From the UHGV virus genome UHGV-0141727: 64,000 nucleotides of DNA. One strand, 5' to 3'. Under the pieces are notes generated by a model that saw nothing but the letters and a program-made list of their open reading frames with translations, was not told the DNA's origin and searched no databases. The position numbers and the translations under genes were made by a program. This stretch comes from a virus. Shown here one piece after another: positions 4,489 through 13,851 of the stretch (position 1 is its first letter; each line of letters opens with the position of its first letter).

Positions 4489-4491
4489 AAA

Positions 4492-4517
4492 GAAGCCCGC
4501 TCAACCAGGCGGGCTTC
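4492..4517. terminator. hairpin between convergent doc (+) and the 4524 gene (-)
   Basis: GAAGCCCGC-tcaaccag-GCGGGCTTC; T-rich flank on the minus strand. Confidence 0.55.
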
Positions 4518-4523
4518 CTACTA

Positions 4524-5630
4524 TCACTCAATGATTTTTTCTGCTGTCAGCCAGCTAATTTCTTGCCTGTCTTTCGGCGGTTTTAGCATGTGGGCGTATT
4601 CAGCAACATTCTCCCACGGAATTGTTTTTGCCCACTCAACGATAGCATTGTGATCTGCAGTGAAGAGTGGAATGGTGTGCGATTTCAACCACTCCAATGT
4701 TGTAACGCCATGTTTTTTGGCGTGGTGCTGTGCATGATGCCGGGCTATCACTCGTAATGGCATTATCCATTCACTACCATCAGGCATCGAAAAGCGCATT
4801 GTCTTCGGCATATCTGATTCAAGAACAGCCTCCCTAATACCAGGAAACTCACCAAGAACCATACGACGGTAGTAATCGCTGTTTTTACCACCATATATTT
4901 CTGCAATGTTATCAAGATAACCTTGAGAAATAATGGGGGTATCTTCGGCGTTCAGCTTGATGGCTGTATAAATACCACATGGATTTTCTTCTGATTTAGC
5001 ACGACCATGATGGGAATCGTAAAAGTGTCCATGCTCCTCCTCTGAAGGAGCGGACATTAAAAGTATACGTGAATCGTCACTTACTAACGATGCTCTTAAC
5101 ATGCTGAATAGCCGATCGCCAGCAAGAGCCGCCTCCGTAACAATGATTAAAAGATGTTCAGCATAATATCCACCGAAACCTTCCTCATAATTTCGGTGAT
5201 ATGGCTTAATTTCGCAGCCCCAATATTCCCGGTAACGATGATTGATGCCGTTTCCATCGACTTTAAAATATTCTCTCAGCAATGGGATTCTGTTACTGAC
5301 TCTATCCCAATACGTACTTATGTATTGGATAACTTGCCTGCGACAATTATAGAACTTTGGGGAAACAATAACCGTTTTAGACTCAGGCATCAGGATTGTA
5401 TAAAGAATACTAATTATAGCGATAACCGTCTTTTGGCCTATCCCTTCAGGAGTGGTGACGCTGACTGCTGAACCTTTTTGTTGAATCGCCTCAACAATTA
5501 GCTTTTGCTGGTGGGTTAACTTAACACCCATCAACTCTTCTGCTGCTAATGCCCAGTCATGGCTATATTTGCTTACCAGCTCTCTCCACTCTGGTAATTC
5601 GGTGATGTTTTTAGGCGTCAGCATCAGCAT
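4524..5630 (-). CDS. terminase large-subunit (PacB-like) N-terminal ATPase-domain paralog, Walker motifs degenerate, no nuclease domain
   Basis: Aligns by eye to the N-terminal half of the 10979-12487 product (HQQKLIVEAIQQKG.. vs HQQQQIIQSVQETG..; AEHLLIIVTEAA vs AEHLLLILDEAS; YDSHHGRAKSEENP vs YESHHSRAKAEGNP); Walker A is PEGIGQKT in place of GHGTGKS. Confidence 0.6.
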   Translation of the reverse strand: MLMLTPKNITELPEWRELVSKYSHDWALAAEELMGVKLTHQQKLIVEAIQQKGSAVSVTTPEGIGQKTVIAIISILYTILMPESKTVIVSPKFYNCRRQVIQYISTYWDRVSNRIPLLREYFKVDGNGINHRYREYWGCEIKPYHRNYEEGFGGYYAEHLLIIVTEAALAGDRLFSMLRASLVSDDSRILLMSAPSEEEHGHFYDSHHGRAKSEENPCGIYTAIKLNAEDTPIISQGYLDNIAEIYGGKNSDYYRRMVLGEFPGIREAVLESDMPKTMRFSMPDGSEWIMPLRVIARHHAQHHAKKHGVTTLEWLKSHTIPLFTADHNAIVEWAKTIPWENVAEYAHMLKPPKDRQEISWLTAEKIIE

Positions 5631-6417
5631 CCTCCGCTACCTCTGCCTCCACATCTGCCGCGACTTCATCGGACTGTTCTTCTTTGGCCTGTTCTGCAAT
5701 CGCCGCACGGCATTTCGCCCTGGCTGTAGCGATGGCCTCAACTTTCACGTCATTAGGAATACTTGAGGTGACATACATATCCAGTTCTTCAGCACGGAAT
5801 ACTGTTTTGTCCAGGAATTCATCAAGCATCCAGGTTAAGGAAAAGTCGCAGGAAATCAGCTCTACTTCGCCTTCCGCGCCGTTTGGGAAATGGATAAACA
5901 TCTGCTTGCCCAGGCCAAGCACGCGACAAGCTGCCATCATTACTGCAAGTTCCAGGTCTTTGTTTTCACCTGCTACTGGTTGATCCACACCAGTAATAGT
6001 GCCGTTCAAATGGATATTATATGGCTGATATTTAGAGATGCGTTCTACACGCCATGTGCCGGTTAAGGTTCCCTGGCGGAAGATTATTGGCGTGACCGAA
6101 AGCGACAGCTCTCGAATGAGTTGTTGTGCTATGGCTGGGTCATACAGGGGATCTAACGCGATGCATCCATAAGACTGCGCCAGTTCAAACAATTCTTCCT
6201 GTGTGCACTGAATGCCTCTTGCCGTAATAAAACGTCTGACTCCCGTTTTTCCGTCACGCCAGATAGCAATGCCATTCTCACTATCTAACTCTTCGTCTAA
6301 GCCCAGGTATGTAAGGATGGTTCGCTCAATGGTGGCAAAGGGCAGGGACATATCATCGTTTACATCCACCAGCAGGCCGTTACGCAGGCGATATTGAATG
6401 TTTTTGGTATTTTCCAC
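5611..6417 (-). CDS. hypothetical protein with strongly acidic C-terminal tail
   Basis: 268 aa ending ...EEQSDEVAADVEAEVAEDADADA; co-directional and overlapping with flanking genes. Confidence 0.5.
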   Translation of the reverse strand: MENTKNIQYRLRNGLLVDVNDDMSLPFATIERTILTYLGLDEELDSENGIAIWRDGKTGVRRFITARGIQCTQEELFELAQSYGCIALDPLYDPAIAQQLIRELSLSVTPIIFRQGTLTGTWRVERISKYQPYNIHLNGTITGVDQPVAGENKDLELAVMMAACRVLGLGKQMFIHFPNGAEGEVELISCDFSLTWMLDEFLDKTVFRAEELDMYVTSSIPNDVKVEAIATARAKCRAAIAEQAKEEQSDEVAADVEAEVAEDADADA

Positions 6418-6423
6418 GTTAAA

Positions 6424-7086
6424 TCACTCCACAACAAACCAGTCACAGGCCAGCAGGTCGCCAACTGAAGGCACCCACGGAACAACTACACCTTGTGCAT
6501 TTTTTAAGGCGAAATAAGCACCATACGGAACGAAGTCGCCGGGGAAATATCCCTTAATGGCTTCCATTCGTGCCGGGTACTGTCCTTCAGGAACCAGCCA
6601 GCAGAATTGGTTTTCGCCGTTCCACCCGCGTCGAGCAACTTTCTTGCCATCCTTCAGCCACATCAGCGCGTCAGAAAAGTCGGCTGCTTCAAGGTCGATT
6701 TCTTCTTGTAGAGTAGCGATACCGCCAGCAGAAATAGTTACGTCCCTGGCTGTAATGAATGTCACCCCATTGTGACCTTCAATGCTGAGCAATGTCCCAT
6801 TTTCGAAGGCGTCGTTAACCCGGCTATAGCATTTTTCAAATGCTTTCTCTGGCACATAGACCAGATAGCCATTTTCAGCAGTGACGAGATATCCTCCTAT
6901 TTGCGGGCGGAATTTTTCCAAGAACACACCATCAACACGAAGCGTCATTCCTTTTGGCTCAACGACTTCGATACTGCCAAAAATGGGCGCATAATCTTCG
7001 CCGACAATAACAATATCTTTGATTTTCGATGCCCGAATGATGCTGTGGCATTTGTATTTGGGGAACACCTGAAAAGTGCTGACCAT
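6424..7086 (-). CDS. protein with C-terminal DUF2829-like domain (Tad2-like candidate)
   Basis: C-terminus ALMWLKDGKKVARRGWNG...DLLACDWFVVE resembles the DUF2829 hallmark as I recall it; about 130-aa N-terminal extension. Confidence 0.45.
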   Translation of the reverse strand: MVSTFQVFPKYKCHSIIRASKIKDIVIVGEDYAPIFGSIEVVEPKGMTLRVDGVFLEKFRPQIGGYLVTAENGYLVYVPEKAFEKCYSRVNDAFENGTLLSIEGHNGVTFITARDVTISAGGIATLQEEIDLEAADFSDALMWLKDGKKVARRGWNGENQFCWLVPEGQYPARMEAIKGYFPGDFVPYGAYFALKNAQGVVVPWVPSVGDLLACDWFVVE

Positions 7087-7100
7087 AATCCTTCCTCTAC

Positions 7101-7595
7101 TTAAAACTTTTCGTACTGAAGCGGTGTACGCTTGATTTCAACGCGGCCTTCCGATGTGCTACCAAAGCCACCAGCACCTCGCTCTGTTTCATCGAGTTCA
7201 TCAACTTCTACCAGCGATACCGGTTCAACACGCTCAAAAATGCCTTGCATGACCGCCATTCCAGGCTTGAGGCAAACACCTTCACCACCGGGATCTGTAA
7301 TCAGTTTTGCCATGATTTCACCGCGATAATCGGCGTCGATAATTCCTACGCAGTTAGCCAGGCGCGTATGCTTTTTGCAGCCCAATCCGGAACGAGGATA
7401 AAGTTTCAGACACCAGCCAGGAGGGATCGCCATAGCGAGGCCGGTATGCACCCACCAGCTTGAGGAAATAGCGCCGTTGCTATCGATACCAGGCGTTATT
7501 TCAACAGCAACAAAATCCATCGCCGCCGATCCGGCGGTGGCGTAAACGGGGAGTTTTGCCGCCGGATGAAGGCGTTTCACTTTCACGTTAATCAT
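7101..7595 (-). CDS. dut: dUTP diphosphatase (trimeric dUTPase)
   Basis: Motifs GIIDADYRGEI and RGAGGFGSTS. Confidence 0.9.
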   Translation of the reverse strand: MINVKVKRLHPAAKLPVYATAGSAAMDFVAVEITPGIDSNGAISSSWWVHTGLAMAIPPGWCLKLYPRSGLGCKKHTRLANCVGIIDADYRGEIMAKLITDPGGEGVCLKPGMAVMQGIFERVEPVSLVEVDELDETERGAGGFGSTSEGRVEIKRTPLQYEKF

Positions 7596-8080
7596 TGCTT
7601 TTTAGCTCTCCGGGTAAATGTATAAATCCGGCGTTTGATATGCGGAGCGGTCGGAACGGAGACGCAGGTATTCTCGATAACACCTTGTTCCTCCAGCGAT
7701 CGCACAGCACGCAAGAACTGTGATGCATCGCCACCGCCAGACAGCCAGAATTTGCGGGCATAGACGCTGCCATTACGGATAATTTCTGCGATCACCCGCG
7801 CTTGCGTCTGGCTTTCTCGATAGCCAAAGAGTTCTCTTGCCTCTCCTTGTGGGATAGCCAACTGGTAGCCTTTCCCGCTACGGTGACGGACAAAACCGTG
7901 AGCAATGAGGTTCTTCAGCTCATTTCGGGTGCGGATACACCCGTACTCAGGGAACTGTGTGTTGATATCACCAGGCTTATGCCATTCATCAGGACTATCA
8001 GCCAGGAGGGACAGAAGTTTCCCTGACAGCTCAGGATTAGTGGTTGGATAGCAGTTCAGGGATGGGTAGTAAGTTTTCAT
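7592..8080 (-). CDS. hypothetical protein (162 aa)
   Basis: ORF overlapping dut start and upstream gene stop by 4 nt. Confidence 0.45.
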   Translation of the reverse strand: MKTYYPSLNCYPTTNPELSGKLLSLLADSPDEWHKPGDINTQFPEYGCIRTRNELKNLIAHGFVRHRSGKGYQLAIPQGEARELFGYRESQTQARVIAEIIRNGSVYARKFWLSGGGDASQFLRAVRSLEEQGVIENTCVSVPTAPHIKRRIYTFTRRAKKQ

Positions 8081-8421
8081 TTGCGCCCCCTTGCCGGATA
8101 GCGCCCGGCATTTGCATCAGGGGCAATGAAGCCGCTGGTGGGGCGAGTGAAAACATGGTTAATTTTCTCGGTCATAGCGCGATAATTTTCCTGATAGTGG
8201 GCCAGGAGTTTTTCAGCAGCAATGACGGTTACTTTCCGGACGTAGCGTTCAGCTTCCTCCAGATTTCGCCAGTTTTTTTCGAGGGTAAACACGGGAACGG
8301 CATCAAGTCCGGTCATAACACCGAACACCACGACCGCCTGGTCGCGCTTAACGCCCGCAGTGAAGGTTATGGTGTAACCGTCAACAGTGAAGCGTTTTGA
8401 TTCCGTAATACGATTGTGCAA
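8077..8421 (-). CDS. hypothetical protein (first gene of the cre-downstream operon, TTG start as called)
   Basis: 4-nt overlap with the next gene; preceded by a 10-bp inverted repeat at 8421-8450. Confidence 0.4.
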   Translation of the reverse strand: MHNRITESKRFTVDGYTITFTAGVKRDQAVVVFGVMTGLDAVPVFTLEKNWRNLEEAERYVRKVTVIAAEKLLAHYQENYRAMTEKINHVFTRPTSGFIAPDANAGRYPARGRK

Positions 8422-8476: not shown

Positions 8477-8494
8477 ATTGTTAGAAAATTAATT
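8477..8494. promoter_or_regulatory. operator-like motif attgTTAGAAAATTAAtt
   Basis: One of at least 10 dispersed copies of the TTAGAAAAtTAA family. Confidence 0.45.
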
Positions 8495-9522
8495 CAGGAA
8501 TCCATCAGGCGACTATTTGCACCAACGGATGCCCCGCTACGGCGCAAATATCGCATAAGTGTTTCGGGCTTTTTCCATGTGCCTTCCTGCATGATCTCGA
8601 CCATTGACACCTGTTTCTCAGCCATATCAATTGCCGCACCAACACGCGCACTATGACCTGTCCACGTCCGGTATCTTCCTTTGTTCGGCGTGGCATCTCG
8701 CTTATTCAGCAATCCCCAGGCATCGCTGAATATTTTCTCCATCGCAGGAGCAGTAAGAGGCGTTGTCGTGATTCTGGCTTTATTACTGCGGTGTATTGGC
8801 GGGAATAGCACCGCGTCCGGATGTTCACGAAGTCCGGACACCTCCAGCCAGTCGTTTAGCACGGCGGTAGTGCAACGAGAAAGCACCTTATCAAGTCCGG
8901 CGGCGGTCGTGATGGTCTTCGTGTGTGAAATATGCAGCGTTACAGTGTCACCTGTTTGGTCCAGATCTCCGACACGGATGCGCGAGATTTCTGACATACG
9001 CATCAGGGTATTGTATGCCACGAAGAGAAACGCCCGATTGCGCAGGTCCACCAGCCGCTCGGAACGGGACAGCAATACGTCGAGCAATTTCAGATCATCC
9101 CACCGCAACGGTATAGCCTGGCCTGTACGCTCGCCTTTTTCCGTTGCCGCTTCGCGCCGGATGCGCCGCATGGCCAGAGATACACTTTTATCGTCTGACA
9201 GCGGCGGTAGGCCGCATTGCGAAAGCAGCATGTTAAGCATGGCATAGTGCTTATCAATGGTGGTCGAAGCCAGATCGGCTTCATGCAACTGGAGAAGATA
9301 CTCGCGGGCCATTTCCGGCGTAATCGGGAACCAGGGGCGCTGGCGCGAATTACACCACCGCGCCCAGGAATGAAAGACCAGACGGAGATCACGAAGTGTA
9401 TTTGGGGCATAAGCTCCCTGGTCGTTCATGAACTGCATAAAGTTTTTTGCAGCTTCCTGGTATTCGGTGCCAATATCGCGCAGAAAACCGCCAGAACCGC
9501 CGGAGATAACTAGTTCACCCAT
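8494..9522 (-). CDS. cre: Cre-family tyrosine recombinase
   Basis: Collinear similarity to P1 Cre as recalled (SWARWCNSRQRPWFP, VSLAMRRIRRE, GHSARVGAA). Confidence 0.9.
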   Translation of the reverse strand: MGELVISGGSGGFLRDIGTEYQEAAKNFMQFMNDQGAYAPNTLRDLRLVFHSWARWCNSRQRPWFPITPEMAREYLLQLHEADLASTTIDKHYAMLNMLLSQCGLPPLSDDKSVSLAMRRIRREAATEKGERTGQAIPLRWDDLKLLDVLLSRSERLVDLRNRAFLFVAYNTLMRMSEISRIRVGDLDQTGDTVTLHISHTKTITTAAGLDKVLSRCTTAVLNDWLEVSGLREHPDAVLFPPIHRSNKARITTTPLTAPAMEKIFSDAWGLLNKRDATPNKGRYRTWTGHSARVGAAIDMAEKQVSMVEIMQEGTWKKPETLMRYLRRSGASVGANSRLMDS

Positions 9523-9673
9523 GAAACTATTAAACCTCTATATACAGATGACGCTACGTGAAAAATAGAAAACTGACAGGGTAGTTATAAGTTAATTTTC
9601 AAAATTCAAGCCTTTGATTCGAGGCATGATTTTTCATCCTTGTCAATACTACCTGTTTACTGGAGATTATAGC

Positions 9674-9707
9674 CTAACTTTAAATAATGCCAATTATTTA
9701 AAGTTAG
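9674..9707. other. lox-like recombination site, 13-bp inverted arms around an 8-bp spacer
   Basis: CTAACTTTAAATA-ATGCCAAT-TATTTAAAGTTAG; arms share TAACTT..ATA with loxP; about 150 bp upstream of cre. Confidence 0.55.
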
Positions 9708-9874
9708 AAATCGGGACTTTTTTCCCAAAAAAACACCGACAAGATCACTTCGCAAATCTGTCAGCCATGCGGTAGCCGTTTCCTGGTTACATTTTCTAAT
9801 AGGAACAATCAAAAAAAAGCGGTTTTATCCTTTACTCACCTTGTTATTCAGCATAAATTTGTCACAGGACTTTT

Positions 9875-9890
9875 ATGTTAGAAAACTAAA
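9875..9890. promoter_or_regulatory. operator-like motif ATGTTAGAAAActaaa just upstream of the 9904 gene
   Basis: Same family as the other dispersed sites. Confidence 0.4.
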
Positions 9891-9903
9891 TCGAGTAGGA
9901 ATA

Positions 9904-10941
9904 ATGAGTAAGAAGTCGATCGAGAATGAGTACAAACGGTTCCTGCAAACCGCTGAACGGTGGAAAGAGCTGGTGGTCGCAAACTCTGTTTTCCATGATA
10001 CCAGTTACGTTGGCGAGGAATTTCGCCATGTTGCATTAACACATGATCCGGCTGTATTAGAAGAAGCTGAAAAATGCATAGCCGAATGGAAAGCCTTTGT
10101 TGATCTGTGTCGCAAGGATGATGACAAAGCCTCAAACATTGTTGAGTCGGTTTATTTACCGATCCCATTCATTGTTGAGGATACTAATCAGAGTACGCAT
10201 ATCGTTATGCAAAGCGCAACCACAACGAGAACATTTACGCGCGAAGACCTGCTGAAAAAATACGATAAAACTATAAAGAAAAGCATGAAAAACAGGATCT
10301 TTTCACAGGTTGTCGGTGCGCTTGAAGAAGAACGCAGATTCTTCGCCGCAGAACGTGAGGGCGAGGTATACCGCGCAAGAAAAGAAGGTTATACCGATGT
10401 GGTGATTACCACCAATATCGAGGGCAACAATGGACTTTCACGCTTCAGAGTGGGTACGCACGGTGCGCTGATCTTTGCAAAAAAAGCAAACACAGAGATT
10501 CCCGTTGTTAACAACGTTGGTGAGCGCCGCACCCTTACCATTTACACTGGCATTAAACCGCTTCCGTGCGGACTTCTCGGCGAATTTGACCTTTATCGGG
10601 TTCGTGACCTGGAAAAGCAGCAGCCAAGCTATGTCGTGAAGTCATATATCCTGAGAAACATTGATATCCGCAATCAGAGTTTAAAAAACAAATCAGAGAA
10701 AATGCTGTCCGAAGCTGATCCAGCCATACACCAGATCGTTAGCCGGAAAATTCAAGAAGCTAAAGATGCAATGGCAAGGCTGGATAAAATGGACCTGGAA
10801 CTACTGGAAGTTATGATTGCCTCCGGCGATGACCTGACAGGCATCCGCCTTACTGAAGCCAGGAAAAAATACGGTAAAAGCGTTGAAGAACGCTATGGGT
10901 ACACATTCACACAAACGATGTACGCGGCAAAACTCTGGTAA
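9904..10941 (+). CDS. hypothetical protein in the position P1 uses for c1 (candidate primary repressor)
   Basis: Start at 9904 preferred (AGGA 4 nt upstream); divergent from cre, convergent with pacB; operator-like motif in its leader. Confidence 0.5.
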   Translation: MSKKSIENEYKRFLQTAERWKELVVANSVFHDTSYVGEEFRHVALTHDPAVLEEAEKCIAEWKAFVDLCRKDDDKASNIVESVYLPIPFIVEDTNQSTHIVMQSATTTRTFTREDLLKKYDKTIKKSMKNRIFSQVVGALEEERRFFAAEREGEVYRARKEGYTDVVITTNIEGNNGLSRFRVGTHGALIFAKKANTEIPVVNNVGERRTLTIYTGIKPLPCGLLGEFDLYRVRDLEKQQPSYVVKSYILRNIDIRNQSLKNKSEKMLSEADPAIHQIVSRKIQEAKDAMARLDKMDLELLEVMIASGDDLTGIRLTEARKKYGKSVEERYGYTFTQTMYAAKLW

Positions 10942-10957
10942 TCGCAAGCCACCCACA

Positions 10958-10980
10958 AGCCCCGAATCGCCGGGGCTTTT
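10958..10980 (+). terminator. rho-independent terminator
   Basis: AGCCCCG-aatcgc-CGGGGCT followed by TTTT. Confidence 0.6.
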
Positions 10981-12487
10981 AAATGTCAATATCAGGAATA
11001 TCCACTTCTGCCAACACCTGATCGCGGAATGTTGCTAGTTCTGCACCAATGTCTTCATTAGCAGGCACGTAATCCACCAGCATAGTGAAGCAGTAGGTAT
11101 CCCATCTGTCCGGCGACTTGATGTTTAACTTCTGCCGCATGTGCTCCTTGCGCATCATCGCCACCTTCCCTTCTTCGTTAAGCATATACGGGATTTTTGA
11201 TGCCTGATCGGCAGTTTTGGGGTCACTATCGATACGCATACGCCCTGATTTAATGGCATCCCCTGCCATAATATTGGCGTAAGCACGCTGATTGACAAAG
11301 CGTTCTCTGTCTCTTAGCGCAAACATAGGTTTACCCCAACGGATGCGAACGGGATTAGCACCACGGCGGACAAGCTGCGCACACGTATCTGAACCAAAGC
11401 CATCAGCATCCACAGCAATGGTGATGTTCGGGTATTTATCAGGAGTGCATTCGTTATAGATAAAGTCGGCAAAAGCCAACGGGTCCATAGTGCCTGGCAT
11501 CTCCAGTATCTTAAAGTTCACAACACGTCGTTTCTCACGATAACCGGATACTTTGCATATATTGAGCACCGATTTGTCGCGACCATTACCGACGTCAGCG
11601 GTCGCTACCCAGCCCCAATCTTTCTCCAGCAACACTTTACGCCGTGCGGCGCGGTCGCACTCATCACGACCAAGCAAATACCCGTTAATTGCACGCGGGA
11701 ACTGGCCCAGCACCTTAACCATGTACTCCAGCGAATCCCTGCCGCCGTACTCCAGCAATTTCTCACGAATAAAGCTCGGTTCAACGAATGGAGATTCTTC
11801 AGAGTTAAGGACTATTGCCGTCCAGACTCCTTCCGGATTGCCTTCTGCCTTTGCCCTTGAATGGTGGGATTCATAAAAGTAACCGCTTGGACGCGTAGGC
11901 TGGGAAAGCATGAGCATACGGTTATCTTTCTGCGTTAACGCCCCCGTCATGACGTTAATCGCCTTATCGGATATGCCCGATGCTTCATCAAGGATTAGCA
12001 GTAAATGCTCCGCGTGCTCCCCCGCCAGTGCCTCTTCGTTACCGAGTCGATAACCTTTACAGAGCACTTCCCATATCCCTTTACGGGAACGCTCATAAAA
12101 CATGGTGTCAGACAGGACAAAATAGGTCTGTAACCAGCCGTGGCGCTTAACAGCATTCGCCCAAAACTGTTTCACGTATTTGAATACGCCTGTTTTTACC
12201 TGGCCTATTTTGTTCGCAACAATAATGACGCGGGCGTCGGGGAACAGGATCATAAAAATTAGTAGCAACATCGCGGTAAGGGACGACTTACCCGTTCCGT
12301 GTCCGGACGTAACGGTCGTCCTGCTCCCCGTCTCCTGCACTGACTGAATGATCTGCTGCTGCTGGTGGGAGGGGAACATCCCAAAAATATCGACAACCGC
12401 CTGGGTAAAGTTGTATCGATACCTGATAACCATATCGCGCCAACGTGGATCACTGGTCACGCACTTAATCTTACGACCACCAGCCAT
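10979..12487 (-). CDS. pacB: terminase large subunit (P1 PacB-type)
   Basis: 502 aa; Walker A GHGTGKS, Walker B LLLILDEASG, C-terminal nuclease-domain length; directly follows the small-subunit gene. Confidence 0.85.
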   Translation of the reverse strand: MAGGRKIKCVTSDPRWRDMVIRYRYNFTQAVVDIFGMFPSHQQQQIIQSVQETGSRTTVTSGHGTGKSSLTAMLLLIFMILFPDARVIIVANKIGQVKTGVFKYVKQFWANAVKRHGWLQTYFVLSDTMFYERSRKGIWEVLCKGYRLGNEEALAGEHAEHLLLILDEASGISDKAINVMTGALTQKDNRMLMLSQPTRPSGYFYESHHSRAKAEGNPEGVWTAIVLNSEESPFVEPSFIREKLLEYGGRDSLEYMVKVLGQFPRAINGYLLGRDECDRAARRKVLLEKDWGWVATADVGNGRDKSVLNICKVSGYREKRRVVNFKILEMPGTMDPLAFADFIYNECTPDKYPNITIAVDADGFGSDTCAQLVRRGANPVRIRWGKPMFALRDRERFVNQRAYANIMAGDAIKSGRMRIDSDPKTADQASKIPYMLNEEGKVAMMRKEHMRQKLNIKSPDRWDTYCFTMLVDYVPANEDIGAELATFRDQVLAEVDIPDIDI

Positions 12488-13851
12488 TAGTCATCCTCCG
12501 GCTGGTCTATCGCAATCTCGTCATCTACAGCATCAAAACCGGTATCCCCCGCGTCATAATCACCGTAGATATCAGCCGTGGCGGAAGGGTCTATATTCAG
12601 GTCTTCATCATTGGCCTCAAATTCACCGGCTTTACGTTCTCCGTTCCGGTCGTAATCCCCCATCCCAAGCCTATCAACGATTTTCGCTACTTCAGCCCGG
12701 CGTTGTGCAAGCCATTGTGGGAGTCCAGCTTGTTGCTCGGCAAACTGCTTCGCCTCTTTATCCAGTTGCTCATCATCAACATCGTTAACGTCAGAAACCG
12801 GAGGCTCCAGAAGTGAGATCGCTTTTGCCGCTCGTGCTGCCAGGATAGCCGGGACACTGACGCCCTGCCGCTCGATATATTCAGCAACGCCTATATCGTC
12901 CAGCTCCTCGCGCTCACGCATACGTATAGCGGCGGCGATAACTCTGGCGGCGCGTGCGTCAGCGCCAATGCGATACTCAATCTCTTTGCCACGCTGCTCG
13001 GCTTGCAGGCGAGTAATCGCCAGTTTTTCTCTGGCCTCAGCCTCTCTGAATGCCTGCTGGCGCGCGCCCTGCGCAAGTTTTTCATCCCCCTGGCGTAGCT
13101 TCTGCTCGGTCTGGTAGATGGCAGCCAACCTACTGATAAAGTCATTCATGTAGTAGGCCGCATCGCTTATTAGGCCGAGAAGACGCTGCCCTGGGTGCAT
13201 TCCCTCTGGCTGTGTATCGCCGAGGGCGTCAATCTCTTCCTGTAGTCGTTCCGCTTCCTGGTCAACGATGGCCTGATACTGAATTGCTCGTTCCTGCGCC
13301 ATCTGTATCGCAAGTCGTAAATGTTCTGTCGCGCCGTTCTTCATCATCTCACGGGCGACGTTGGTGGCAGGCAAAGTGGCGCTTTGAGCTGATGAGTCAG
13401 GGATCATTTGCAATGATCCCATGTTTCGTTGGGCTTTTTCGCTGCTTTTAGGGATCATTTCCCCCATTTCATCACAAAATGATCCCCTTACATCCTTGTG
13501 TATCTTGTTGTTATTACTTGACTTTTCTTTGTGATCCGCATTTTGTTTTTGCGGCATGGCGCGGAATCGTCCACCAGCTAACGATTTGTCAGTTTTTGTA
13601 AATTCTGTGCTTTTATCAGCCTTTTTTTGCTCTTTTTTTGGGCTTGCGGCGCTGCTTTTCGCGCGCTGTTTTGTGCTTTTCCCGGCAGCCTTAGCTTTCG
13701 CTTTAACCTCATTTTTTTTCATATTGAGATGCTTTCTGGCGGTGTTAAAGCTGAGGTCATGCTGCTCGCAATATTCCTTTATGGTGATCCCGGTTTCTTC
13801 TCTTAACTCCAGGAACTTAGCTCGATGCGCTTCCCAATTAATTAACGTCAT
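12487..13851 (-). CDS. pacA: terminase small subunit / pac-recognition protein (P1 PacA-type)
   Basis: N-terminal HTH, lysine-rich linker; coupled to pacB; GATC-rich pac-like repeats inside the gene. Confidence 0.6.
   Translation of the reverse strand: MTLINWEAHRAKFLELREETGITIKEYCEQHDLSFNTARKHLNMKKNEVKAKAKAAGKSTKQRAKSSAASPKKEQKKADKSTEFTKTDKSLAGGRFRAMPQKQNADHKEKSSNNNKIHKDVRGSFCDEMGEMIPKSSEKAQRNMGSLQMIPDSSAQSATLPATNVAREMMKNGATEHLRLAIQMAQERAIQYQAIVDQEAERLQEEIDALGDTQPEGMHPGQRLLGLISDAAYYMNDFISRLAAIYQTEQKLRQGDEKLAQGARQQAFREAEAREKLAITRLQAEQRGKEIEYRIGADARAARVIAAAIRMREREELDDIGVAEYIERQGVSVPAILAARAAKAISLLEPPVSDVNDVDDEQLDKEAKQFAEQQAGLPQWLAQRRAEVAKIVDRLGMGDYDRNGERKAGEFEANDEDLNIDPSATADIYGDYDAGDTGFDAVDDEIAIDQPEDD
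13400..13538. other. candidate pac site: five GATC-containing ATGATCC/GGATCAT elements within about 140 bp inside pacA
   Basis: GATC at 13403, 13415, 13454, 13481, 13534 in a repeated flank context. Confidence 0.45.

Follow-up and report, generated by a model that had tools for sequence, protein, structure and literature searches.

A predicted pseudo-enzyme paralogue of the terminase large subunit with a hypervariable N-terminal domain in P1/D6-type phage-plasmids

Organization of the locus

The gene analysed here occupies positions 4524-5630 of UHGV virus genome UHGV-0141727, a stretch of 64,000 nucleotides that was analysed as a whole and is referred to below as the window. Within the P1 group of phage-plasmids the window is D6-like: its DNA is ~82–84% identical to that of phage D6, and the Escherichia coli plasmid pEC361_3 is near-identical to it. 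An earlier note, made from the nucleotide sequence alone, had described the product of this open reading frame (ORF) as a paralogue of the terminase large subunit, and had proposed that it acts as a decoy or packaging-interference factor, or that it is a diverged remnant. We use the working name PAR (PacB-ATPase paralogue) for this protein. The ORF of 368 amino acids (aa) was found as described, to which its location on the minus strand can be added. The real start is probably the second ATG, at 5624 (giving a product of 366 aa), since a GGAGGA Shine-Dalgarno sequence abuts the first ATG and both RefSeq and the homologues use the second. The features of the locus are listed in Table 1.

Table 1. 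PAR, its domains and motifs, and the surrounding features of the window
Feature	Coordinates	Strand	Remarks
PAR gene (PacB-ATPase paralogue)	4524..5630	-	368 aa from first ATG; stop codon 4524-4526
Predicted N-terminal pseudo-ATPase domain (aa 1-264)	4839..5630	-	terminase large-subunit ATPase fold, hypervariable cassette; AlphaFold2, Foldseek, allele comparison
Degenerate Walker A, P61-EGIGQK-T68	5427..5450	-	Gln at Lys position of PacB GTGKS; Q/H/R/T/E across family
Degenerate Walker B, L160-LIIVTEA-A168	5127..5153	-	Thr at PacB Asp position
C-terminal domain (aa 265-368)	4527..4838	-	~100-aa stand-alone phage/plasmid protein family
GC-rich hairpin and T-run	4490..4516	.	directly past PAR stop, between PAR and convergent doc
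isaA homologue	5611..6417	-	268 aa; 47% identity with P1 IsaA; 20-nt overlap of its end with the PAR start
Tad2-like/DUF2829 protein	6424-7086	-	220 aa; same-strand run upstream of PAR
dUTPase (dut)	7101-7595	-	same-strand run upstream of PAR
Two genes without assigned function	8077-8421 and 7592-8080	-	same-strand run upstream of PAR
cre-like recombinase	8494-9522	-	same-strand run upstream of PAR
Promoter-like site TTGGCA-16-TATAAT	9666..9693	-	upstream of cre; 11/12 matches, consensus match only
C1-type repressor ORF	9841-10941	+	366 aa from TTG start
PacB, terminase large subunit	10979..12487	-	502 aa; bona fide, Walker A and B intact, C-terminal nuclease half
PacA, pacase A subunit	12487..13851	-	454 aa; partner of PacB; unrelated to IsaA

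Relationship to PacB and loss of the catalytic motifs

Pairwise BLASTP aligned residues 7-263 of PAR with residues 8-264 of PacB (34% identity, 60% positives, 2 gaps, E=3e-52). The likeness to the ATPase half of PacB, noticed earlier by eye, is thus far beyond chance. Residues 265-502 of PacB have no counterpart in PAR, and the C-terminal end of PacB matches the Sf6 gp2 nuclease, whereas PAR does not. The nuclease half has therefore been replaced, as the earlier note stated, although not by unrelated sequence: the replacement is a recognisable, independent domain family (see below). PAR is also matched by the profile of PHROG 5902, a PacB-like family of 'unknown function' (E=1.9e-133, residues 7-367 on positions 3-358/359); the profile covers the C-terminal domain of PAR and was therefore evidently built with PAR-type members.

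Structure prediction gave a terminase ATPase fold for the N-terminal part of the protein. The AlphaFold2 model of aa 1-264 (51 sequences as input) had a predicted local distance difference test score (pLDDT) of ~90, and the best Foldseek matches of this domain in the PDB were the ATPase domains of the terminase large subunits (TerL) of P74-26, Sf6, T4 and D6E (E 1e-9 to 1e-6). The fold predicted for the C-terminal domain (a beta-hairpin and helices) is unlike an RNase H-like nuclease.

The Walker A region reads TTPEGIGQKT in PAR and TSGHGTGKSS in PacB, and the Walker B region LLIIVTEAA and LLLILDEAS, respectively. The degeneracy of both motifs is a true loss in the alignment, and it extends to the whole PAR family, for which we used about 8 clusters (P0001-P0007 and P0025) together with the P1-type allele from GenBank P1 isolates. 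In every family member the Walker A Lys has given way to Q, H, R, T or E (GIGQKT in the window; GIGHKS, GIGRPQ, GVGTTT and GIGETS in relatives), whereas GTGKS is invariant in 42 PacBs. The Asp-Glu pair of Walker B, likewise invariant in PacB, appears as TE, AE, MD, VD, LN or NS, and the C-motif (QPTR in PacB) varies across the family.

Comparison with the same 42 PacB sequences included 92 columns of the ATPase domain with a conservation of 90% or more in PacB. PAR keeps 38 of these columns and fixes 13 to another residue, while the remaining 41 are variable; those of the Walker A Lys/Ser, Walker B DEASG and C-motif QPTR are among them, as is one conserved Arg. None of the PacB-like patches that are retained lies within the active site; they are the N-terminal P.W..Y, QQ..I, GxFYxxHH, I.LN.E..P, GG and G.FP. 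The loss of the catalytic columns and the preservation of the outer ones therefore indicate a pseudo-ATPase with the scaffold and some surfaces of PacB. PAR is, as judged from these alignments, a predicted pseudo-enzyme that has the terminase-ATPase fold and probably lacks ATP hydrolysis.

In the neighbour-joining tree the PAR sequences form a single clade with a long branch, next to that of the enterobacterial PacBs, a topology that points to a single duplication of the ATPase domain of pacB followed by faster evolution. Three PacB-like matches of deviant length (P0038, P0045, P0053) were considered as further pseudo-ATPases and rejected, as each is a genuine PacB that is truncated but has its Walker motifs intact.

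In summary of this relationship, PAR shares with PacB homology over the whole ATPase domain, membership in PHROG 5902, the fold, the N-terminal extension and the GxFYxSHH patch, but it lacks the Walker A Lys, the Walker B Asp/Glu, the C-motif and the nuclease domain; moreover, its gene does not adjoin pacA and is accessory, not universal, and its alleles are more divergent. Since PAR fails both the catalytic and the architectural tests of a TerL, the label 'terminase large subunit' carried by some GenBank records of this protein is misleading.

Hypervariability of the N-terminal domain

The comparison of PAR-bearing elements indicates that the N-terminal domain alone is swapped in the manner of a hypervariable cassette, regardless of which PacA, PacB and IsaA are resident. 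Plasmids NZ_CP115379 (L070) and NZ_CP135715 (L071) encode closely similar PacA (96% protein identity), PacB (98%), C1 (90%), Cre (99%), Dut (98%), Tad2-like protein (98%) and IsaA (96%), as well as PAR C-terminal domains that are 97% identical, whereas the N-terminal domains of their PAR proteins share 51% identity. The nucleotide identity of the two plasmids falls from ~98% to 33–78% in one segment only, which runs from the 3' end of isaA to the border between the PAR domains, and then rises to 91–100%; the breakpoints are sharp. The same pattern, a divergent N-terminal domain between near-identical flanks, was observed when the window was compared with L070, L071 and L005.

Throughout the D6-type locus the C-terminal domains are 86–98% identical and the N-terminal domains 49–89%, with 90–99% identity in the flanks, and PacB is 91–98% identical where the PAR alleles are 49–89% identical. 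Nowhere in the region is the G+C content lower than in the segment encoding the N-terminal domain (0.415). One variant, P0025 (L069 5001-5801, in a D6-like element), consists of the N-terminal domain only (266 aa), breaking off at the domain border. This element also lacks phd/doc downstream.

PacA itself is 74% identical between elements. Co-variation of the N-terminal alleles with the resident PacA, PacB or IsaA was sought and is absent, which argues against a housekeeping role of PAR alongside its own PacA and PacB. Specificity determinants in genetic conflicts typically show a cassette pattern of this kind.

The C-terminal domain and the origin of the fusion

A full scan of 1.84 billion representatives (phmmer/HMMER) assigned the C-terminal domain to a family of 185 clusters (E<=1e-3), most members of which are stand-alone phage and plasmid proteins of ~100 aa. 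PAR contains the family motif MPDGSxWxVP...IAxHRA...TLPLF...DWA.NNM.W.DV...GW.NG, and its C-terminal domain also matches the C-terminal part of PHROG 17928 (E 3.9e-14). The last 100 residues of PAR thus belong with the PHROG 17928/CP2 ORF36-type and stand-alone proteins, all of which are annotated as 'hypothetical'. No Pfam model matches the family, and the PDB sequence-profile search with the domain returned nothing.

Stand-alone relatives of the domain sit among early, replication and recombination genes. One such gene lies directly 3' of the DnaB-like ban in other P1-like plasmids, another adjoins genes for a Rad52-type annealase, NinB and NinG, and a third is located beside a Cas4-type (PD-(D/E)xK) nuclease gene, near a relaxase. 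In ORF36 of Xanthomonas phage CP2 (L068 2771-4306, 511 aa, PHROG 17928) the domain forms the end of the protein, and the gene is placed immediately upstream of those for an Erf-like annealase, an exonuclease, an endonuclease and SSB (a protein that binds single-stranded DNA). Relatives of CP2 ORF36 (P0197, P0190) have a DUF1351-like N-terminal region. Fusion to a terminase-type domain was found in PAR only; elsewhere the domain either stands alone or follows a DUF1351-like region.

The origin of the fusion is suggested by the P0007 lineage (locus L004), in which PAR immediately follows ban. The C-terminal domain of P0007 shares 79% identity with P0287, a stand-alone protein of 98 aa that fills the same post-ban slot in related plasmids, where a 95-aa ORF is present in place of the pseudo-ATPase domain. 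This arrangement is most simply read as the insertion of a duplicated pacB ATPase domain upstream of a small gene already in place, with in-frame fusion of the two. In the Enterobacter and Cronobacter P1-like plasmids (L006 5721-6578, L007 5718-6578) the slot downstream of ban is occupied by three overlapping small ORFs (95-96, 98 and 92 aa), of which the second encodes the stand-alone C-terminal domain and the first is swapped for the pseudo-ATPase domain in L004.

Distribution and selection

Among 744 plasmids of PLSDB with a PacB-like gene, about a fifth (164/744) also carry PAR, either in the D6-type position (about 45) or in the P1-type one (about 119). The hosts of these plasmids are Escherichia, Salmonella, Klebsiella and Shigella, and the PLSDB matches listed are annotated solely as 'hypothetical protein'. 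Phage D6 and reference P1 are devoid of PAR. Judging by this distribution, PAR is an accessory gene.

The reading frames are intact in all PAR alleles (at least 6), despite saturated synonymous sites. Between the window and the P0004 allele the proportions of synonymous and nonsynonymous differences (pS and pN) in the N-terminal domain are 0.64 and 0.30, respectively; for the C-terminal domain the synonymous divergence (dS) is 0.098 and its ratio to the nonsynonymous one (dN/dS) ~0.08. In every comparison pN is much lower than pS. These values indicate that the alleles are old and that each is under purifying selection.

A P1-type PAR was also detected, together with an hxr gene 96% identical to P1 hxr, in a 7-kb contig designated 'MAG: Bacillota bacterium' (L013, JAFAFU010000075.1; MAG, metagenome-assembled genome). 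This is almost certainly an enterobacterial P1-like contig that was mis-binned.

Genomic context and predicted expression

In the window a run of genes on one strand (cre, two genes without assigned function, dut, the Tad2-like/DUF2829 gene and isaA) ends with PAR. The junctions between these genes are short or overlapping, and the run is probably an operon ending in isaA and PAR; the hairpin and T-run past the PAR stop codon are likely to be the terminator that closes it. In the P1-type elements the order is ssb, isaA, PAR, followed by hxr on the opposite strand, and the C1-controlled operator Ossb is located upstream of ssb, with PAR as the last gene downstream of it. By analogy with P1, this arrangement suggests that PAR is expressed early in lytic growth. 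Start overlaps suited to translational coupling are conserved in three genomic contexts of PAR. No convincing repeated operator-like 14-mers were found upstream of cre, and no P1-type pac hexamer clusters near PAR.

The Tad2-like gene lies two genes upstream of PAR, and the C-terminal domain of its product is of the Tad2-like (Thoeris anti-defence 2)/DUF2829 type (PF11195, E 1.7e-22). The N-terminal ~95 residues of this protein are variable or absent in relatives, and it is 146 aa long in D6 and L005. It is 61% identical to its counterpart in pEC361_3, despite the near-identity of the rest of that plasmid. The C1-type repressor, relatives of which are annotated at 345 aa, is only 80–81% identical to C1 of otherwise close plasmids, and the lack of a P1-type C1 operator anywhere in the window implies a different immunity specificity.

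The neighbouring isaA was detected in 474 plasmids, and is thus commoner than PAR; the isaA-PAR pair is therefore facultative. We considered whether IsaA is a paralogue of PacA, which would make the two genes a second pair of small and large terminase subunits, but this was ruled out, as the proteins show no similarity. Searches of Pfam, NCBIfam, PADLOC and PDB sequence profiles with IsaA gave nothing significant and assigned it to no known family. The gene is dispensable in P1 according to CRISPR interference data (PMC10695390), and isaA-IS1-isaB is a recognised variable region of P1-like plasmids (PMC6906374, PMC9603915).

Reference P1 (L003, NC_005856, 6534-8244) has IS1 and isaB exactly at the place that PAR occupies in the P1 isolate MH422554 (L002, 5980-7096). 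It is colinear with the PAR-bearing P1-type elements up to the stop codon of isaA, and again from hxr onwards, retaining just the first 9 nt of PAR. P1 IsaB was considered as a possible remnant of PAR and ruled out, since the two show no similarity. PAR is carried at the IS1-isaB position by two GenBank P1 isolates as well as by the P1-type plasmids counted above, so that laboratory P1 is atypical at the isaA-hxr locus; the presence of IS1-isaB in place of PAR is probably the reason for the lack of earlier work on the gene.

Possible function of PAR

Searches of the PADLOC-DB defence models gave no match for PAR, IsaA or the three proteins encoded upstream, Pfam and NCBIfam gave nothing significant for PAR, and no described function of PAR or IsaA was found in literature searches. 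The sequence features described above make it most likely that PAR is a non-catalytic terminase mimic engaged in some phage-host or phage-phage conflict. Among the specific readings we give the highest weight to one that is still tentative, namely that PAR is a decoy for host terminase sensors.

As such, PAR would work by binding, rather than by ATP hydrolysis or DNA cutting, and its partner would be a variable factor that normally recognises the ATPase domain of the terminase. Made early, before the late appearance of the real PacB, PAR would fill host sensors of the large terminase, of the Avs1-3 or Upx type. Having neither bound ATP nor the nuclease half, it would not trigger their oligomerisation, and its C-terminal domain may add a steric block or a second contact. 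The TerL ATPase domain alone suffices for the activation of Avs2 and Upx, and Avs2 and Avs3 read the TerL active site together with its ATP (bioRxiv 10.64898/2026.04.30.721860). The cassette-like hypervariability of the N-terminal domain renders a role as a decoy, or in packaging interference, more plausible, and we also counted in favour of the decoy the neighbouring Tad2-like, anti-Thoeris-type domain and the early-operon context, both in P1-type elements and in the lineage with PAR right after ban. In its boldest form, which we regard as doubtful, the proposal would make PAR the first phage-encoded mimic of a viral 'pattern' protein: an early, dead copy of the TerL ATPase that occupies Avs1-3/Upx sensors without activating them, its cassette recording an arms race with the receptors.

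Several points weigh against a decoy. The recognition by Avs2 and Avs3 needs active-site residues and ATP that are absent from PAR, so that binding may fail, and it is not obvious why sensors that read conserved features would call for a hypervariable decoy. The usual neighbours of the C-terminal domain are recombination and replication genes, which hints at another kind of partner. With regard to the expression timing of the D6-type gene, P1-type C1 operators and Lpa-type late promoters were sought in the window and none was found. Moreover, literature searches on terminase decoys revealed no anti-defence protein that mimics a terminase.

The nearest analogue of PAR is vs.8 of phage T4, a stand-alone paralogue of the gp17 ATPase domain, which its authors suggest to be a possible anti-defence protein, and which keeps Walker A and B and activates EcAvs2 (bioRxiv 10.64898/2026.04.30.721860). 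The two are likened by description: both are second, non-packaging copies of a terminase ATPase in a phage genome, confined to one lineage. They differ in that PAR has lost both Walker motifs and has an extra C-terminal domain, and they derive from different terminase lineages.

The alternatives account for parts of the same evidence. PAR may instead be a packaging-interference factor or a dominant-negative subunit of the pacase, an explanation that we consider less than probable. By keeping PacB surfaces for PacA, PacB, the portal or DNA, the protein would form dead complexes that block pac cleavage or assembly of the motor, acting against competing P1/D6-type phages or, as a timing brake, against its own pacase. 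The PacB-invariant patches retained outside the active site, together with the missing catalytic motifs and nuclease half, fit such a role, as does the accessory and polymorphic nature of PAR, which is often a property of exclusion determinants; PacA is also fairly variable between elements. However, strongly divergent N-terminal alleles coexist with nearly identical PacA and PacB in L070 and L071, and the variation of PAR therefore does not track the resident pacase, which a poison subunit would need to spare. In addition, P1-type PAR is placed behind a C1-controlled operator and is thus likely to be silent in the very lysogen that would need protection. Proteins encoded by satellites, namely Ppi of Staphylococcus aureus pathogenicity islands (SaPI) and Rpp of phage-inducible chromosomal islands (PICI), interfere with packaging by binding the small subunit of the terminase. 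They would resemble PAR under this explanation only, as non-catalytic proteins that disable or redirect the terminase of a helper or competitor; their folds are unrelated, their target is the small subunit, and satellites, not the phage itself, encode them, so the resemblance is one of functional analogy only and speaks against rather than for the explanation.

The conserved part of the protein directs attention elsewhere. If the C-terminal domain were the functional core, PAR would be an accessory adaptor of replication or recombination, acting on a process linked to SSB, a recombinase or a helicase, with the dead ATPase domain as a scaffold or DNA-binding module that may connect replication intermediates to packaging. 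We consider this unlikely, although the free-standing genes for the domain adjoin ban/DnaB, Rad52-type annealase, NinB, NinG, Cas4-type nuclease and Erf/SSB genes, PAR is located within the ssb operon in P1-type elements, and the C-terminal domain is its most conserved part. The adaptor explanation leaves unexplained both the hypervariable N-terminal domain between near-identical neighbours and the recruitment of a terminase domain in particular, and the existence of the N-terminal-only variant P0025 also argues against it. Finally, the suggestion of the earlier note that PAR is a diverged remnant, i.e. a decaying and functionless product of the pacB duplication, is extremely improbable. It would agree with the loss of the catalytic motifs, with the absence of the gene from D6 and reference P1, and with the dispensability of isaA in P1 (PMC10695390). 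It is nevertheless essentially refuted by the full-length ORFs in 164 plasmids, representing at least 6 alleles with saturated synonymous sites, and by pN values well below pS; the confidently predicted fold of the N-terminal domain, the conserved C-terminal domain family and the conserved coupled start overlaps also contradict it.

Significance

The genes for terminase large subunits are regarded as hallmarks that are present in single copy and universally encode a catalytic enzyme, and the subunits are the main protein 'pattern' sensed by bacterial NLR-like (nucleotide-binding, leucine-rich repeat-like) immunity. The phage-plasmids of the P1/D6 type are, in turn, important vehicles of resistance genes in Enterobacteriaceae. 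PAR, as a predicted pseudo-enzyme offshoot of the terminase family, departs from this picture, and records that name it a terminase large subunit mislead in this respect. A copy of the terminase that is maintained by selection as a pseudo-enzyme and bears a swappable, recognition-like domain would represent a new class of phage accessory protein: depending on which reading holds, a decoy directed at receptors that sense the terminase, or a terminase poison with which competing phages act on each other.
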